The notes under the pieces are model-generated. The model saw only the letters and a list, made by a program, of their open reading frames with translations. It did no database searches and had not been told where the DNA came from. The position numbers and the translations under genes were made by a program. A stretch of 49,171 nt of DNA from an uncultured Bdellovibrionales bacterium (GTDB lineage Bacteria > Patescibacteriota > Minisyncoccia > Moranbacterales > UBA2206): the NCBI GenBank assembly GCA_964387895.1, contig CAYLWX010000003.1:1277-50447 (forward strand), in the 5' to 3' direction. Shown piece after piece: positions 7,639 through 49,025 of this stretch (positions are counted from its first letter, which is position 1; each line of letters starts with the position of its first letter).

Positions 7639-7769
7639 AAATTTCCAATTCCCAATTTCTAATTTCCAATAAAAATCCCAATGTCTAAATCCTAATCCCG
7701 AGTACTCGGGACAAAATCTCAAGCTCCAATGCCCAAATTTTGCTACTTGGGATTTGGGAATTAGAAATT
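7639..7769. repeat. 7-nt-period repeat element with inverted ends and an inserted 16-bp palindrome
   Basis: AATTTCCAATTCCCAA ... TTGGGAATTAGAAATT ends; TCCCGAGTACTCGGGA at 7696-7711. Confidence 0.75.
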
Positions 7770-10000: not shown

Positions 10001-10196
10001 TTTAGGACTTACGCATTTGTCATCCCCGCGTAGGCGGGGATCCAGAATTCAGTGTGGAAAACGATATATACAATGACAGCTAATTTAGTTTATTTTTGCT
10101 TTATAGACGGATTATTATAGGAGAGATACGTGGTATACTCCTGGATTCCCGCCTACGCGGGAATGACAATGGAAAGTCAAATGCGTAAGTCCTAAA
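10001..10196. mobile_element. MITE/REPIN-like element, copy 1
   Basis: Perfect 19-bp TIR TTTAGGACTTACGCATTTG around inverted hairpins GTCATCCCCGCGTAGGCGGGGATCCAG / CTGGATTCCCGCCTACGCGGGAATGAC. Confidence 0.85.
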
Positions 10197-16564: not shown

Positions 16565-16757
16565 CATGACTTACGCGTTTGGTTTTCTTTTATGTCATTC
16601 CCGCGTAGACGGGAATCCAGGAGCATACCACACGAATATCTAATAATAACCCAGATATAGAGTAAAAAGAATCGAAATTAGTATATTTTTATATTTCACC
16701 TTGCCCATTGAATCCTGGGTCCCCGCCTTCGCGGGGATGACAAATGCGTAAGTCATG
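16565..16757. mobile_element. MITE/REPIN-like element, copy 2 (inverted relative to copy 1)
   Basis: 17-bp TIR CATGACTTACGC(G/A)TTTG with 1 mismatch, same inner hairpins and a homologous spacer. Confidence 0.85.
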
Positions 16758-26532: not shown

Positions 26533-27600
26533 ATGTCATCTCGGTTACGCTCAATTTACCAATCCAAAAATAATCTTGCTCGGCAACTTACGGTTATTGT
26601 TCCGGCTTACAATGAAGAAGAAAGCATCGCGGATACATTGCAAAGTATTTTAAATCAAACATGCCCGCCAAAAGAAATCATTGTGGTAGATGATTTTTCA
26701 AAAGATAAAACAGGAGATGTCGCGCGCAAGTGCGGGGTTACGGTAATTCGTCCTCCTCGAAACACCGGCTCAAAAGCCGGTGCTCAGAATTTTGCGTTGC
26801 GGCAAGTGAATACTAAATATCTGATGGCGATTGATGCCGATACGGTATTGGAAAAAGATGCTATTGAAAAACTTTTCCGCGCGTTTCGGGATAAAAAAGT
26901 AGTCGCGGCCTGCGGGTTCGTGCTTCCTCGTTATGTGCGTACAATGTGGGAGCGGGGGAGATATATTGAATACCTTTTTGCCTTTAGCTTTTACAAGCCT
27001 ATTCAGGATTATTTTGGGAAGCCATTGATTTCATCGGGTTGCTTTTCGCTCTATCAAACAGAAGCGGTCCGCGAGCAGGGAGGATGGTCAATGCGGACTA
27101 TGGCTGAAGACATGGATTTAACCTGGAGTTTTTACCAAAAAGGGCATAAAGTTCGATTTATTCCCGAAGCATTATGTTACCCTATTGAGCCTCATAACTA
27201 TGACTTTATGAGCAAACAATTGCGTCGCTGGTCGCATGGGTTCGTGCAGAATGTAATGTTACACTGGCGCGGCTTGGTGCATATTCCTTACTTGCGTTTG
27301 GCGGTGGCGGTTTCGGTTTGGGATTCCATTATCGCTTCCGTAGCGTATCTCTTTTTAATTCCAATTCTTGCGGTGTATTTTAAACAGCCTTTATTGTTGT
27401 CGGGATATATCATTGATATTCCCGCGGTGTTATTGCCAGTGTGCATTGAGGCTCGAAAAAGAAAAGAGATAAAAAAAGTGTTGGCAAGTTTTCCGTCTTT
27501 TTTTGTGCTGCGTTTTGTGAATAGTATATTTATTTTGAAAGCCTTCTGGAGCGAACTGGTTTTGAAGCGTTCGCTTCGAGTTTACGAAAAGGGGCATTGA
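26533..27600 (+). CDS. glycosyltransferase family 2 (processive type)
   Basis: VPAYNEE, VVDD, KAGAQN, IDAD, AED, QLRRW (QxxRW); C-terminal TM helices. Confidence 0.92.
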   Translation: MSSRLRSIYQSKNNLARQLTVIVPAYNEEESIADTLQSILNQTCPPKEIIVVDDFSKDKTGDVARKCGVTVIRPPRNTGSKAGAQNFALRQVNTKYLMAIDADTVLEKDAIEKLFRAFRDKKVVAACGFVLPRYVRTMWERGRYIEYLFAFSFYKPIQDYFGKPLISSGCFSLYQTEAVREQGGWSMRTMAEDMDLTWSFYQKGHKVRFIPEALCYPIEPHNYDFMSKQLRRWSHGFVQNVMLHWRGLVHIPYLRLAVAVSVWDSIIASVAYLFLIPILAVYFKQPLLLSGYIIDIPAVLLPVCIEARKRKEIKKVLASFPSFFVLRFVNSIFILKAFWSELVLKRSLRVYEKGH

Positions 27601-28071: not shown

Positions 28072-29019
28072 TTAAATATTTACTCCCGTATATACTTTGG
28101 CTACATACCGATATCTACGGCTTGCTTCGGAAACCTGGTCTTCTGTAAGAGGAGGGATAGGGGGATCACCTTCCCCTCTTGCTCGTGCTTCCATAAGTAT
28201 CTTTCTGTATCCAGAATCTTCATGGATTTGGCGAATATATTCTTTTGAGCAGTGGACAACGACTGCTTCTCCTTCCTCTCCTTGTGCGAGATAGTAAGGA
28301 CGGTCTTCATCTGGAGTTCCGAATACGTCTCCTATCATCGGTTTTCTTCCTGGCCCCATGATGACTTCGAATTTTCCATCAGCCACATAAAGACCAGGTG
28401 CCATCGCGAGAGCAACTTCTGCTGCAAGCACTTTAATCATTTCCCATATTTCATCAAGGTTGGCAAATGTGAGACCGGCGATTCGGCAGGCCTCTTCTTT
28501 GGTTAGCGGTCGGTCTACGTGCTCCCATTTGGTGGTGAGTTCCAGTACTGTTTCTGGAAAGGGCGTGCCAAAGGCTGGGATTACTCCTGGAGGAAATCCA
28601 TACTTAGTTGGATCTTTTTGGCCTGACTGAAAAGCTCTTTCAATGCTTCCTGCTACTCTTGCCCGGCAGATGAACTCGAGTGGGATAACGTAGTCTTCTT
28701 CGAGGCAGCTTATGTCCATGCCCTTGATGATTTGTGCTTCGCGAACCAGAAGCGTGGTTTCATCTGCTCGCTCAATGAAATGAGTGGGAATGCCGAGAGT
28801 CTGGGCGATTTGGAAAGATTTTTCCGCACAATGAGAGACGGAAGAGCCTTTTTTTGGAATTTCAGTCAATGCTCTTCCTACATCGAACACGGAATAAAAA
28901 TCGGTTGATTCAAATGCCAGTATGTCATGCCCGGCTCTGTAAATATTTTTTGAACTCCCGTGTCTTACAGGCAGCCATCCTTTCTTCTTCACAATTTCAC
29001 TCACTGTGAAACCCTCCAT
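28072..29019 (-). CDS. purC: SAICAR synthetase (start may be GTG at 29004)
   Basis: GSSKNIY, TD.YSVFD, IPTHF, IPLEFICR..VAGS, TTKWE, DGKFE, GTPDEDR, SKEYIR. Confidence 0.88.
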   Translation of the reverse strand: MEGFTVSEIVKKKGWLPVRHGSSKNIYRAGHDILAFESTDFYSVFDVGRALTEIPKKGSSVSHCAEKSFQIAQTLGIPTHFIERADETTLLVREAQIIKGMDISCLEEDYVIPLEFICRARVAGSIERAFQSGQKDPTKYGFPPGVIPAFGTPFPETVLELTTKWEHVDRPLTKEEACRIAGLTFANLDEIWEMIKVLAAEVALAMAPGLYVADGKFEVIMGPGRKPMIGDVFGTPDEDRPYYLAQGEEGEAVVVHCSKEYIRQIHEDSGYRKILMEARARGEGDPPIPPLTEDQVSEASRRYRYVAKVYTGVNI

Positions 29020-29121
29020 ATAGTGATGAAAAGAAACAAAAAACCAAACATCTGTCTGATTTCTCCTTATGTTCACTCTAGCGTATAAAAAATAAAAATT
29101 CAAGAAGATTATACGTTCCAC

Positions 29122-29150
29122 TTGACGAGGTGTTAAAAAAAAGATACTAT
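29122..29150 (+). promoter_or_regulatory. sigma70 promoter of rplS/tRNA operon
   Basis: TTGACG-17 nt-TACTAT. Confidence 0.6.
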
Positions 29151-29325
29151 AAGAAAGCTAAAAAATAGCGCGGGAAGGCTGTTTTAACCCCGCACCAATT
29201 GCCAGAATAAGTTTCTGATTTTGAATGATTGTCAATATTTGATACGCATAATGTATGCGCATGAGGTGATTGGGACAATCGGGAGGGATTTATTTTTACC
29301 GGATAATTTTTTTTAGATTATTTGT

Positions 29326-29799
29326 ATGTTACAAAAAGTCATTGAATTTAATAAAAACCATGCTAAACTTCTTGGGGGAGAGCGTAAAATACCCGAATTC
29401 CAATCCGGCGATGTAGTGCGCGTGCATCGAAAAATTAAAGAAGGAGACAAAGAGCGAATCCAGATCTTTGAAGGGATTATTATCGCGATCAGGGGAAAAC
29501 AAAGCTCGTCCCCGATGATCACTGTGAGAAAAGTTTCCAATGGCATTGGGATTGAGCTTGTATTGCCTGTTTTTTCTCCCGGTATTGAAAAGATAGAACT
29601 GGTAAAGAGAGCTAAAGTGCGAAGAGCGAAACTCTATTATCTTCGCGGTCTTACTGCCAAGAAGAGTCGTATGAAATACAAAGATCTTTCCGCGTTCGTG
29701 ATCCCCGAAGAAAAGAAATCCAAAAAGCCGGTTTCTCCAATGGAAGAACCTGAAGCAGGGGAAAAACTTGAGGAGGTTGAAGCGGGTTCCAAAGAATAA
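29326..29799 (+). CDS. rplS: 50S ribosomal protein L19
   Basis: [33 protein letters not shown]. Confidence 0.97.
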
Positions 29800-29838
29800 T
29801 AGGAATAAGGTATAATAAATCAGACCAGAGCGCCTCAC

Positions 29839-29924
29839 GGGGATATGGTGGAATTGGTATACACACACGTTTGAGGGGCGTGGCCATCATTGGCGTGAGG
29901 GTTCGAGTCCCTCTATCCCCACCA
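29839..29924 (+). tRNA. tRNA-Leu(GAG), CCA encoded
   Basis: GGGGATA/TATCCCC, CACGT-TTGAGGG-GCGTG, long variable arm. Confidence 0.93.
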
Positions 29925-29934
29925 GAAATCAGCA

Positions 29935-29999
29935 GGATCCTTAGCTCAATTGGCTAGAGTCCCGAGCACTCGGGATTTACACCGAGGGGGTTATAGGTT
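29935..29999 (+). pseudogene. pseudo-tRNA-Val fragment with a 16-bp palindrome replacing the 5' anticodon-stem strand
   Basis: TTAGCTCAATTGGCTAGAG-[TCCCGAGCACTCGGGA]-TTTACACCGAGGGGGTTATAGGTT; flanks identical to tRNA-Val at 30263. Confidence 0.85.
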
Positions 30000-30008
30000 T
30001 GAAGTAAC

Positions 30009-30272
30009 ATGGATTTCTGTGTATACATTGCCTACAATGAAAATCATGATAAATTTTACATTGGCCAAACATACAGTATAAATAAAAGAGAGTCAGAGCA
30101 TAATTCTGGCTTATCTCGGTTTACTTCCAAGTATGATGGTGTGTGGAGAATTGTGTACGTTGAAAAATTTCTAACCAGATCAGAAGCAATGAAGAGGGAA
30201 AAATTTTTGAAAAGGCAAAGGAATAAAGATTTTTATAGAAAGTTAATAAGAGATTCCCAGAAGGACAATTAG
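30009..30272 (+). CDS. small stand-alone GIY-YIG nuclease
   Basis: VYI..FYIGQT..R..EHN, FTSKY, EAMKREKFLK. Confidence 0.92.
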   Translation: MDFCVYIAYNENHDKFYIGQTYSINKRESEHNSGLSRFTSKYDGVWRIVYVEKFLTRSEAMKREKFLKRQRNKDFYRKLIRDSQKDN

Positions 30273-30339
30273 CTCAATTGGCTAGAGCACCTCGTTTACA
30301 CCGAGGGGGTTATAGGTTCGAGTCCTATATTGTCCACCA
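30263..30339 (+). tRNA. tRNA-Val(TAC), CCA encoded
   Basis: GGACAAT/ATTGTCC, CCTCG-TTTACAC-CGAGG, T loop TTCGAGT. Confidence 0.95.
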
Positions 30340-30349
30340 GAATACATTA

Positions 30350-30390
30350 GGATTACTAACTCAATTGGCTAGAGTCCCGAGGACTCTGGA
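30350..30390 (+). pseudogene. second tRNA-Val 5' fragment with a degenerate palindrome
   Basis: GGATTACTAACTCAATTGGCTAGAG-TCCCGAGGACTCTGGA. Confidence 0.7.
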
Positions 30391-30398
30391 TCCACAAT

Positions 30399-30470
30399 GC
30401 CGAAGTAGCTCAGCGGTAGAGCGAAGGACTGAAAATCCTTGCGTCGGCAGTTCGACTCTGCCCTTCGGCA
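30399..30470 (+). tRNA. tRNA-Phe(GAA), CCA not encoded
   Basis: GCCGAAG/CTTCGGC, AAGGA-CTGAAAA-TCCTT. Confidence 0.95.
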
Positions 30471-30524
30471 CAATAATTATACGCTTTTGCTTTAGCGGGC
30501 TTGCCTGTCGAAGCATCAGCGAAA

Positions 30525-30599
30525 GCGGGTATCGTATAGCGGCTATTATATTACCTTGCCAAGGTAGAGATACGGGTTCGACTCCCGTTACCCGCTCCA
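30525..30599 (+). tRNA. tRNA-Gly(GCC), CCA encoded
   Basis: GCGGGTA/TACCCGC, TTACC-TTGCCAA-GGTAG. Confidence 0.92.
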
Positions 30600-30619
30600 A
30601 AAAGATTTTCTTCTTTCTC

Positions 30620-30677
30620 GCGAGAGTAGCACAGTGGTAGTGCACCAGCTTCTCAAGCTGGCTACGCGGGTTCGATT
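30620..30677 (+). pseudogene. truncated tRNA-Gly(CCC) copy (anticodon mutated to CTC)
   Basis: Matches 36728-36785 with one substitution; ends after the T loop. Confidence 0.85.
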
Positions 30678-30725
30678 TGTTTTTAGTGTTATAATGAGGG
30701 GGTAATAAAAATTTAAAAGGAAAAT

Positions 30726-31385
30726 ATGTTTGGAGATACTAGTAGCTTTAAAAATATTCAGGGCGGAACTGAAGAAAAAAAAGAAGACATTCATCATGTG
30801 GCAAAAAAAGAAATAAATATGATTTATGAATCATATGCAACCAATCGTGAAAGGGTTGATGTTATAAAGGAAGCAGTAAGGAAGGTTTCGCATGTCGTAG
30901 AAAATTCAGAGGAGACATTGGCTAATCTTGAAGCGTGTGTGGAAATAGAAAACAAGAAACAATTTGTGGACGCGATTTTTCAAGCCACCCAGTCTTTGAT
31001 TAATTTGAAGATAGATAGTCCAGAGCCTCTAGTGGTTGCAGGGGAAGACTCCAAAGAAAGAATCAGAGTGAACAATCTCCTTCTTTATGAAATAAAAGGA
31101 GATTGTCTTGATCTGCATGTAAGCCCAAATAAGGTTGTAGAGCACCCCTTAAAAGAACTAGCCGATGGATTTTACAAAATAGCTGGTTTGGTCAAGGATA
31201 ACGCAGAAATAAAAAAAATTGAAGGTGAGTCTTGGATTATAGCTCGGCATCCTAAATTGATGAAAAAGTTCGGGTTTACCTTGATCGGGGAAAGTTATGA
31301 GTCAAAAACCGGAGGATTGGTCAATAAAGCATATATGTCTAGAGAGGAATTTCTGGATAGATATCTTAAGAAATATAACGGGTAA
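30726..31385 (+). CDS. hypothetical protein between tRNA-Gly copies
   Basis: 219-aa ORF with AAGGA RBS; C-terminal ESWII..HPKLMKKFGF..MSREEFLDRY. Confidence 0.75.
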   Translation: MFGDTSSFKNIQGGTEEKKEDIHHVAKKEINMIYESYATNRERVDVIKEAVRKVSHVVENSEETLANLEACVEIENKKQFVDAIFQATQSLINLKIDSPEPLVVAGEDSKERIRVNNLLLYEIKGDCLDLHVSPNKVVEHPLKELADGFYKIAGLVKDNAEIKKIEGESWIIARHPKLMKKFGFTLIGESYESKTGGLVNKAYMSREEFLDRYLKKYNG

Positions 31386-31411
31386 TTTTACACGATAAAT
31401 TTTTCTTTCTC

Positions 31412-31482
31412 GCGAGAGTAGCACAGTGGCAGTGCACCAGCTTCCCAAGCTGGCTACGCGGGTTCAACTCCCGTTACCCGCT
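31412..31482 (+). pseudogene. chimeric tRNA-Gly (CCC-type 5' part, GCC-type 3' end)
   Basis: 5' GCGAGAG.. from Gly-CCC, 3' CTCCCGTTACCCGCT from Gly-GCC; two acceptor-stem mismatches. Confidence 0.8.
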
Positions 31483-31653
31483 CACATGATTAGTTTGAAA
31501 AAAATACATTTGAAGTGGACAATTGTAAAATAAAAATAGCAGGTTGTAAACCTGCTCTTGCATCACCTGCTCTTGCATCAGGCTAGAGCCATAATAATAC
31601 TTAATTCAGATTAGTCAATTTATAGAATCTAACGCAAAAGTTTGTTAAAATTT

Positions 31654-32124
31654 ATGTTTAATTTGTTTAAGAAGAAAATGACAGAAAGCGATAGATTTTG
31701 TCTTTGAATATGTTAACAAGAGTCCCGTGTTGAAAGATAAGAAATTTAATGTTTCTGTACCAGAAGCTAATGAAATAATAGCATTGTGGTTTTTTGCTAT
31801 TCAAACAGTGCCTATTTTCAATTTATTTGAAGGTCAATTGCAAAAAAATATTTATAATCGTTGCGTAAGTGGATTTTCAGCAATCAGAGAGAATGATATT
31901 TTGTGGGCGGAACAGAATGTTAATGAATTCGTAAATGACTTTAATGCTAATTATACGAAAAGAACCGTCGGTAGATTTTCTGAATGGCTAACGAGTAAAT
32001 TATATGGAGAGAGGATAAAAGATCCTGTAATACTTGTTGGCTAGATTTGTTTGCAACAACGTCGTCTTTCAAGTGGAAAAAAGCGACAGATGATTATAGA
32101 ATTATTGAAGAAAAAACTAATTGA
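31654..32124 (+). pseudogene. frameshifted AT-rich hypothetical gene
   Basis: MFNLFKKK start out of frame with ORF 31727-32044; another open frame runs to TGA 32124. Confidence 0.5.
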
Positions 32125-36727: not shown

Positions 36728-36798
36728 GCGAGAGTAGCACAGTGGTAGTGCACCAGCTTCCCAAGCTGGCTACGCGGGTTCGATTCCCGTCTCTCGCT
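36728..36798 (+). tRNA. tRNA-Gly(CCC), CCA not encoded
   Basis: GCGAGAG/CTCTCGC, CCAGC-TTCCCAA-GCTGG, GCGGG-TTCGATT-CCCGT. Confidence 0.95.
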
Positions 36799-36874
36799 CT
36801 TTTGTATTACTACTTTTGATTTTTAAAGTGCGCGGGTGTATGCTATAAACAGTGCTAATTTTTAACAAAAAAAT

Positions 36875-47924: not shown

Positions 47925-47972
47925 ATCCCAAGTACTCGGGATTGGAAATTGGATATTGGGAATTGGAAATTT
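47925..47972. repeat. 16-bp palindrome joined to a TTGGAAA repeat end
   Basis: ATCCCAAGTACTCGGGAT-TGGAAATTGGATATTGGGAATTGGAAATTT. Confidence 0.7.
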
Positions 47973-48853: not shown

Positions 48854-49025
48854 TGTCATTCCCGCCCCCGTCTTCACGAGGGTAAACTCTGGCGGGAATC
48901 CAGGAGTATGCCACGTATTTTCCATATAATAATCCAACTATAGAATAAAAAGAATAAAAGTTAAATGTATTTTTTATTTCACTCGTTGATTTAAATCCTG
49001 GATTCCCGCCTACGCGGGAATGACA
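48854..49025. mobile_element. MITE/REPIN-like element, copy 3 (no outer TIR; insertion in the left hairpin loop)
   Basis: TGTCATTCCCGC[25 nt]GGCGGGAATCCAGGAGTATGCCACG ... CTGGATTCCCGCCTACGCGGGAATGACA. Confidence 0.8.

Follow-up and report, generated by a model that had tools for sequence, protein, structure and literature searches.

The window, the whole 49,171-nucleotide (nt) stretch of DNA analysed here, covers positions 1277-50447 of contig C3 (CAYLWX010000003.1) in the genome G000 (986 kb in 27 contigs; GCA_964387895.1) of an uncultured bacterium of the Patescibacteriota. Within a transfer RNA (tRNA) array it carries a small gene for a single-domain GIY-YIG nuclease of 87 amino acids (aa), which lies among copies of the tRNA-Val gene. 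The spare copies are disabled by a 16-nt palindrome, here called P, and one copy is intact. Together, the nuclease gene, a palindrome specific to its clade and the duplicated tRNA sequences form a module that recurs in other genomes and that the inspected relatives lack at the corresponding site; it decays and it amplifies in tandem, and different nuclease clades are found at different tRNA genes across phyla. Taken as a whole, we read the unit as a selfish, mobile and integrase-free cassette with an Ssn-like nuclease that lives inside tRNA gene duplicates, and we give this reading a probability of about 0.6. Genomes, contigs, loci and sequencing runs are denoted by G, C, L and X numbers.

Structure of the tRNA-Val locus

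Downstream of rplS (ribosomal protein L19) both ARAGORN and Rfam call a tRNA array in the order Leu-Val-Phe-Gly. The first gene of the array, tRNA-Leu(gag) (29839-29924, + strand, Rfam 51.8 bits), forms the upstream border of the insertion and tRNA-Phe(gaa) (30399-30471, + strand) the downstream border, followed by tRNA-Gly(gcc) at 30525-30599. Between the borders lie three copies of the 5' region of tRNA-Val. The middle one belongs to an intact tRNA-Val(tac) (30263-30339, + strand; ARAGORN, Rfam 70.7 bits) with the acceptor stem GGACAAT/ATTGTCC, and this is the sole tac isoacceptor among the 42 tRNAs of the genome. The two others are pseudo-tRNAs on the + strand, delimited by alignments and a direct repeat; neither was called a tRNA by ARAGORN, nor by Rfam at E≤1 (29000-32000). 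Copy 1 (29935 to ~30005) aligns as tRNA-Val positions 1-25, P and positions 32-56, is then truncated in the T loop, and has the acceptor sequence GGATCCT as compared to GGACAAT in the intact gene. Copy 3 (30350-30398, preceded by a 10-nt spacer from 30340) consists of positions 1-25, a degenerate P and then GGATCCAC, which is the 3' end of a GGATCC-type tRNA-Val, and it abuts tRNA-Phe at 30399. An 82-nt direct repeat (29900-29981 and 30315-30396, 77%) shows copy 3, together with the 10 nt of spacer upstream of it, to be a duplicate of copy 1 and its spacer.

Both defective copies carry P, which has the form TCCCGAG-NN-CTCGGGA. By pattern search the upstream copy (TCCCGAGCACTCGGGA) is at 29960-29975, where it folds as a DNA hairpin of -5.5 kcal/mol (z -3.4), and the downstream copy (TCCCGAGGACTCTGGA), with one mismatch, is at 30375-30390. 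The sequence TCCCGAG[C/G]ACTC[G/T]GGA is found at the identical tRNA position in copies 1 and 3, in both of which it occupies the place of the anticodon stem's 5' strand. The nuclease gene itself (30009-30272, + strand; Pfam PF01541, E 2.9e-15), identified from the list of open reading frames (ORFs), is flanked by P on both sides, as one copy ends 33 nt before the ATG and the other starts 103 nt past the stop. The final 10 nt of the ORF are at the same time the initial 10 nt of the intact tRNA-Val, so that the TAG stop (30270-30272) forms tRNA bases 8-10. The distance between Leu and the intact Val is 338 nt and contains copy 1 and the 87-codon ORF.

All these parts lie where an earlier sequence-only reading of the stretch had placed them, including the three tRNA-Val 5' copies, the palindrome in both defective ones and the GIY-YIG ORF with its stop inside the tRNA. 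That reading had also proposed a minimal unit without integrase, in agreement with our finding that the ~415-nt unit contains no integrase and has the 87-aa frame as its sole ORF. Its further proposal, transcription together with the tRNA operon, is plausible. A scan of the + strand found neither a two-hexamer promoter nor a terminator; a TATAAT at 29811-29816 was seen by eye only and not by the promoter scan.

Since tRNA arrays are rich in repeats, and since related samples also contain relatives whose tRNA-Val alleles differ, the extra tRNA-Val pieces could be an artefact of mis-joined strain reads, as the sequence-only reading had warned. This was not borne out. A 697-nt Logan contig from run X1 spans 29748-30444 with 0 differences and three contigs from run X2 tile the same stretch (both runs may be the source sample). 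Furthermore, the tRNA stretches shared within the locus are 19-24 nt, shorter than the 31-mers used, and an independent metagenome-assembled genome (L026) has the parts in the same order. As far as contigs can show, the locus is not an assembly artefact, and we assign that explanation a negligible probability.

PF01541 covers residues 3-73 of the protein and is its only Pfam match; there is no second domain, NCBIfam gave no match and PADLOC gave marginal matches only (E 0.004). The AlphaFold2 (AF2) model shows a single GIY-YIG fold with a pLDDT of 92.7. Matches were found to 29 database proteins, including the window's own (P0001, 100%), most of them 72-100 aa long and one 133 aa, and the source annotations say only 'GIY-YIG nuclease family protein' or 'putative endonuclease'. 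Residues Y6, Y17, G19, R27, H31, N32 and E64 are invariant in an alignment of 16 homologs and presumably represent the GIY-YIG catalytic set; homologs at 51-68% identity keep the catalytic residues.

The nuclease gene recurs at tRNA genes

The sequence-only reading had predicted that homologs of the nuclease would be associated with tRNA sequences, and this is what we observed. A scan with one genome per species gave 53 homolog loci, from Moranbacteria, Falkowbacteria, Paceibacterota, Bacteroidota, Ignavibacteria and others, and ±1.5 kb around each was examined. A tRNA was present in 47 of the 53, the nearest tRNA being co-oriented with the nuclease gene in 47/47; one distant tRNA in L027 was on the opposite strand. 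In 27 of the 53 loci the tRNA was within 40 nt, with distances measured to the ends of the tblastn match rather than of the ORF. Paralogs of the same type, taken as the 20 best matches in 40 relatives, showed the same picture with a co-oriented tRNA in 15/20, at 30 nt or less in 13 cases and at 100 nt and 268 nt in the other two.

As a control for these numbers we used a sister family of small GIY-YIG genes of the NTS/SsnA type (see below), comprising two 99-aa genes on contig C14 and 18 of their 19 matches in relatives; the remaining match, G010:C11, is at a contig end and was left out. No tRNA was found within ±700 nt in any of these (0/20). The comparison of 15/20 with 0/20 shows that the link to tRNA is specific to the kind of nuclease found in the window and is not a property of small GIY-YIG genes in general.

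To describe the architecture, ten of the closest homolog loci (L025-L032, L034 and L036) were read and compared together with the locus in the window. In the ten, the host tRNA is tRNA-Val (tac, cac or gac) in eight and tRNA-Ala(tgc) in two; the copies in Bacteroidota and Ignavibacteria are mostly at tRNA-Asp, and more distant ones are at Leu, Asn, Pro, Gly and Lys; among the latter, the tRNA-Pro-linked homolog L077 is from a Flavobacterium. The gene ends within the downstream tRNA copy in 8 of the 11 loci, in six of those at T8-A9-G10. Two forms were seen. In the first (6 loci) an intact tRNA lies upstream, with the ATG starting 0-1 nt after it, and the gene extends into another tRNA copy, which bears P and lacks the 5' acceptor strand. 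In the second, represented by the window and L026, a truncated P-bearing copy is followed by the gene, which runs into the intact tRNA; L026 has the complete order of P-bearing pseudo copy, gene, intact tRNA-Val and P-bearing pseudo copy. The unit forms tandem arrays in L035, and in L032 the first 14 nt of the gene are repeated after the pseudo-tRNA. In G026 a GIY-YIG gene interrupted by a stop lies between a pseudo-tRNA-Phe and an intact tRNA-Phe. Elsewhere in the genome of the window, a decayed GIY-YIG gene (G000:C17:15394-15640, with one TGA and one TAA) lies 12 nt upstream of tRNA-Lys(ttt) and is preceded by a 13-nt repeat of the tRNA-Lys 5' end.

The palindrome changes with the nuclease clade

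In the window P has 4 matches as compared to 0.12 expected. Besides the two at the locus, pattern search placed a dispersed copy at 7696-7711, which is intergenic, within AT-rich inverted repeats and has no tRNA nearby, and another with one mismatch at 47926-47941. The whole genome has 31 copies with up to two mismatches (0-1 in shuffles) and 23 with up to one (reversed control 0). Of the 31, 24 are intergenic, in a genome where ORFs of at least 90 aa cover 88%. Several copies appear by eye to sit in the middle of AT-rich inverted repeats; of two window copies tested, one does and one does not. Judging from their flanks, some copies resemble terminator stems followed by T runs. The sequence-only reading had suggested that the palindrome might mark or protect the occupied allele. 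We tried P as a tRNA-specific mark and rejected it, since only 4/31 copies are within 150 nt of a tRNA, as compared to a mean of 2.2 for random intergenic positions (p 0.16).

In the 53 homolog loci P occurs 53 times in 155,832 nt (up to two mismatches; 0-1 in 20 shuffles), and this occurrence is sharply divided. All 27 loci with P are among the 29 closest homologs (L025-L053), and none is among the 24 distant ones; the expected layout of a palindrome-bearing pseudo-tRNA flanking the gene was recovered in 27/29 of the closest homologs. Where P varies it keeps its symmetry, as CCCCGAG..CTCGGGG in L039, L046, L049 and L051 and as TCACGAG..CTCGTGA in L040; the centre varies freely and the arms hardly at all. 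P lies before the anticodon loop in pseudo-tRNA-Val and pseudo-tRNA-Ala; in pseudo-tRNA-Asp its position is variable (anticodon hairpin, D arm or T loop).

Other hairpins were seen in the distant homolog loci that were read (6 of the 24). Similarly, a paralog in G020 has the order pseudo-tRNA-Lys, gene, tRNA-Lys, pseudo-tRNA-Lys, with TCCGCCAGCCGGCGGA at the same tRNA position, and a paralog in G031 has a pseudo-tRNA-Ser carrying TCCCGCCCTGGCGGGA. At L079 (G020:C31:6178-6894) seven copies of TCCGCC-NNNN-GGCGGA are found within 700 nt, in several pseudo-tRNA-Lys copies around the gene and the intact tRNA-Lys. The palindrome therefore changes with the nuclease clade, a link that rests on ranking by identity and not on phylogeny, and by analogy with Ssn nucleases and their flanking repeats P is best read as the probable cognate site of the nuclease.

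A resident Ssn system in the same genome

According to Chenal et al. 2025, the Ssn family consists of single-domain GIY-YIG proteins (cd10448 in the Conserved Domain Database), and four purified SsnA homologs cut only single-stranded DNA, beside a hairpin repeat named NTS or, more widely, SRM (PMC11893778). This repeat flanks the gene of the nuclease itself and is present in up to hundreds of copies per genome, specificities differ between homologs, and SsnA lowers transformation by NTS-flanked DNA (PMC11893778). The consensus is given as CGTCATTCCCGCGMAVGCGGGAATCYRG for NTS and as HGTCWY...RNCYNB for SRM (PMC11893778).

Inverted GTCATTCCCGCGTAGGCGGGAATCC repeats, which are near-canonical NTS, lie on either side of the two 99-aa GIY-YIG genes of contig C14, and the ~1-Mb genome of the window thus has a canonical Ssn system. 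In addition, the genome holds 73 NTS-like repeats (GTCATTCCCGCG-NNN-GCGGGAATC, up to three mismatches; reversed control 0). Most are arranged as inverted pairs at a distance of ~125 nt and in this resemble miniature non-autonomous elements; in the window, NTS-like repeats occur near 10019-10167, 16594-16741 and 49001-49024. The two full NTS-ssnA-NTS units on C14 sit inside a sugar-nucleotide gene cluster. The tRNA-embedded 87-aa protein shares 40% identity over 68 aa with the NTS-flanked 99-aa paralog (E 2e-10), and it is by this proxy and by layout, not by assignment to cd10448, that we liken it to Ssn.

Empty sites and the origin of the tRNA-Val copies

The Leu-Val-Phe-Gly array is conserved among relatives in the family, which made it possible to look for the empty site that the sequence-only reading had anticipated. 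In 16 relatives whose arrays have Leu directly followed by Val (ARAGORN) the two are separated by 5-211 nt, which would not accommodate the gene. The array L010 is from G010, whose tRNA-Leu is the most similar (97%) and which shares the GGACAAT acceptor; its gap measures 37 nt by eye. Altogether, the arrays of 17 relatives were read and none has a gene between Leu and Val; these relatives belong to other genera, and the difference is not a within-species polymorphism. The longer Leu-Val gaps contain tRNA fragments with GC-rich hairpins. Joined forms were also found in contigs of X5 and X6, which belong to other studies and connect 29922 to 30269 via 11-15 nt ending in GGATCC. An empty Leu-Val site does accordingly exist in relatives.

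The acceptor stems give some information on which tRNA-Val is native. The GGATCC type is common to copy 1 and the end of copy 3 in the window and to the upstream pseudo copies in L025 and L026, and the intact tRNA-Val genes beside them have three different acceptors. Pseudo copies of one type beside intact genes of differing types favour a scenario in which the pseudo copies travel with the nuclease gene. The GGATCC type of tRNA-Val occurs in other genera, namely in seven relatives (L008, L009, L011, L012, L014, L017 and L021).

How the cassette may be expressed and move

We propose that the cassette gene would be transcribed by read-through from the promoter of the tRNA array and released by tRNA processing, which, where the ATG abuts a tRNA 3' end, would give a nearly leaderless mRNA. 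By analogy with SsnA (PMC11893778), the protein would bind the P hairpin in single-stranded DNA, during replication or uptake in transformation, and nick beside it. Breaks at P could then lead to recombination between the tRNA-homologous segments that flank the gene. Such recombination may copy the cassette into unoccupied tRNA genes while sparing tRNA function, may cause tandem amplification, and may leave tRNA debris and seed P elsewhere.

A wider proposal, which we hold tentatively and at clearly less than even odds, is that there is a cross-phylum class of integrase-free cassettes in which a hairpin-specific minimal GIY-YIG nuclease is carried between tRNA duplicates, and the universally conserved tRNA sequence provides portable homology arms by which the cassette spreads laterally, for instance in natural transformation. 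Such cassettes would keep one tRNA and disable the spare with the cognate palindrome, seed REP-like repeats and tRNA debris, and be a principal cause of the turnover of tRNA arrays in Patescibacteria and Bacteroidota.

Several observations weigh against the interpretation as a mobile Ssn-like cassette. The weakest step is the route of movement, which may be homologous recombination, a circular intermediate or transformation. Campbell-type or circular-integration schemes explain which copy is truncated but not all acceptor-stem types, and are not claimed here for that reason. The acceptor types also allow another history. The X5 and X6 contigs with a near-identical tRNA-Leu carry a GGATCC-type Val at the empty site, and G010 shares GGACAAT; because of the former the resident Val may have been disabled and another Val brought in. 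Among relatives, the number of P copies does not follow the presence of the gene; in G009 there are 6 P and our query gave no GIY-YIG match, and 13 of 40 relatives have 1-11 P, yet none has a homolog more than 50% identical. The palindrome of the G020 clade is clustered at its locus (7/13 matches) rather than dispersed.

The link to tRNA and the likeness to Ssn also have their limits. No tRNA was found in 6/53 homolog loci (L040, L063, L066, L068, L069 and L073) and in 5/20 paralog loci, some of which, including two of the five, are at contig ends; L040 ends in an N run and yet shows tRNA-Asp fragments. The loci counted are kin and hence non-independent samples. By eye, P has neither the oriented GTCAT-like tag of NTS nor the GTCWY of the SRM consensus; the pseudo-tRNA context reads AGTC and then C where W is required, and the flanks of the 31 genomic copies are not conserved. 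In solved structures the best neighbours of the protein are the UPF0213 proteins 1zg2 and 1ywl, followed by Slx1 and the I-TevI and UvrC catalytic domains, and a sequence search gave no solved Ssn structure.

Alternative explanations

The sequence-only reading had regarded the nuclease as a homing endonuclease. In its classical form, a free-standing enzyme of the Seg type would cut the double-stranded DNA of an unoccupied tRNA-Val, repair from the occupied allele would follow, and the palindrome would merely destroy the target in the spare copies and so give immunity. The GIY-YIG domain, a weak match to a 'homing endonuclease' in PHROGs (E 1.9e-4), the presence and absence of the gene among relatives, and group I intron-like inserts and LAGLIDADG-like ORFs seen by eye in the same tRNA arrays are all in line with this, as is the precedent of phage T4 SegB, which resides in a tRNA cluster and is reported to drive inheritance of that region (PMC2330249). 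We nevertheless find homing unlikely and the earlier claim unsupported, as the 87 aa make up a bare catalytic domain without a DNA-binding module, and the intact tRNA-Val beside the gene would stay a target. Furthermore, P is found at 29 places outside the pseudo-tRNA copies of the cassette, and it changes with the nuclease clade at a kept tRNA position, which fits a cognate site better than random disruption. The palindrome could instead belong to a domesticated host system that is not actively mobile. P would then act as a terminator or processing signal, or as a mark restricting the extent to which transforming DNA replaces the tRNA array, and the nuclease would be a host factor, a role proposed for SsnA and NTS in Neisseria. 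The mostly intergenic location of P, the copies that look like terminator stems with T runs, the conserved catalytic residues and the effect of SsnA on transformation described above agree with such a role. This alternative is quite improbable, given that the site is empty in all relatives inspected, that the unit occurs only patchily across phyla and tRNA identities, and that pseudo-tRNA copies have foreign-type acceptor stems. Decayed copies (C17, the stop-interrupted copy at L018, and internal stops in several matches) and tandem arrays such as L035 also speak against it.

Finally, tRNA fragments without a GIY-YIG gene are frequent in the arrays of relatives (L012, L014-L016 and L023), and the locus might represent inert debris, that is, a decayed local tandem duplication of tRNA-Val in which a small ORF and a common GC-rich hairpin are found together by chance. 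The three-part layout is however seen in 27/29 of the closest homolog loci from several phyla, homologs retain their catalytic residues at identities as low as 51%, and the sister family gave 0/20. Debris is a scarcely credible explanation, already contradicted by the adjacency to tRNA, the recurrence of P, the paralog counts and the sister-family control.

Other disrupted or duplicated tRNA genes

Directly downstream of the array, the window holds a second unit of pseudo-tRNA, ORF and intact tRNA (30608-31483). A 66-nt direct repeat (30608-30673 and 31400-31465, 95%) comprises a 12-nt leader and 54 nt from the start of tRNA-Gly(ccc). The tRNA copy on the upstream side scores 38 bits with Rfam, has the anticodon CTC and a broken T arm, and is followed by a 219-aa ORF (30726-31385) without Pfam family, whose look-alikes are only hypothetical proteins in Patescibacteria, and then by the intact tRNA-Gly(ccc) at 31412. 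P is absent from this unit. The genes for tRNA-Gly(ccc) are two, at 31412-31483 and 36728-36799, 5.2 kb apart with 12 ORFs of at least 90 aa between them, and the segment they enclose may be an insertion bounded by tRNA copies. A perfect 15-nt tandem repeat (ACCTGCTCTTGCATC, 2 copies; 31550-31579) lies directly 3' of the first of these genes.

Outside the window, on the same contig (G000:C3:70741-72172), the gene for tRNA-Pro(cgg) is followed 1.3 kb downstream by a perfect 55-nt copy of its own 3' part, as an integrated element would leave. Two tRNA genes missed by ARAGORN appear by eye to contain introns, tRNA-Asn(GTT) being split by ~570 nt encoding an ORF with an HNH motif (G000:C12, ~26930-27552), and a tRNA with a CAT anticodon by ~270 nt (G000:C1, ~82085-82415); the 42 tRNAs found otherwise include neither Asn nor a third CAT tRNA. 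In relatives, again by eye, the anticodon loop of tRNA-Phe is interrupted by a group I intron-like insert in L007 (~1225-1545; G007) and L011 (~345-715; G005), and a ~230-aa ORF that looks LAGLIDADG-like lies beside the array in L011 and L022.

Comparison with known systems

The cassette in the window agrees with Ssn/SsnA in encoding a single-domain GIY-YIG protein of ~80-110 aa, in placing its gene between copies of a GC-rich hairpin palindrome, of which further copies occur genome-wide, and in having a palindrome that differs between nuclease clades. The P core TCCCGAG/CTCGGGA moreover resembles the NTS core TCCCGCG/CGCGGGA. It differs from Ssn in that the gene is embedded between tRNA copies, with palindromes inside pseudo-tRNAs. 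The nuclease would be of the known Ssn-like kind, and what appears to be new is an Ssn-like nuclease with a putative cognate palindrome in a tRNA-embedded architecture, which we did not find in print. The word tRNA is absent from the main text of Chenal et al. (PMC11893778), and a literature search, with subscription journals and supplements outside its coverage, gave no description of small bacterial GIY-YIG genes embedded in tRNA duplicates. If our interpretation is correct, Ssn nucleases would have a second lifestyle, as tRNA-duplicate units beside the insertion sequence-like NTS-gene-NTS units, and the cassettes would be a concrete candidate source for the many fragments and tandem copies of tRNA genes that small-genome bacteria contain. 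The natural nuclease-palindrome pairs, with at least four distinct palindromes seen, would be candidate single-stranded-DNA tools. The cassettes also raise the question of how a mobile element can exploit an essential and universally conserved gene without an integrase and without killing its host.

Phage SegB is a larger multi-domain protein that acts on the double-stranded DNA of a co-infecting phage, and it is not known to have a cognate palindromic repeat or pseudo-tRNA flanks. Like the cassette, it is a GIY-YIG nuclease encoded among tRNA genes; SegB of phage T4 is reported to drive preferential inheritance of the tRNA region (PMC2330249), and in phage T6 the tRNA region undergoes segmental amplification by SegB (PMC13096335), to be compared with the tandem amplification in L035. 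T4 SegB was the only tRNA-linked GIY-YIG precedent in our literature search. Seg-like genes and the cassette also have in common presence and absence at one site among relatives, in our case in other genera. The cassette differs in having only the GIY-YIG domain, without a separate DNA-binding domain.

With REP/REPIN-RAYT and IS200/IS605 the cassette shares a single nuclease gene flanked by its own hairpins and dozens of orphan intergenic copies of these. Those systems recognise their hairpins in single-stranded DNA. The enzyme in our case is of the GIY-YIG type, which is its sole Pfam match, and not a Y1 HUH transposase, and in the abstracts surveyed no tRNA embedding is described for REP-RAYT or IS200/IS605. 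The genomic islands and prophages that target tRNA genes, on the other hand, have the conserved tRNA landing site, the partial duplicate left behind and the preserved tRNA function in common with the cassette. The cassette differs from them in that it is a ~415-nt unit without integrase, its duplicates are the 5' part of the tRNA or nearly the whole of it rather than a 3' att core, and its spare copy bears a palindrome.

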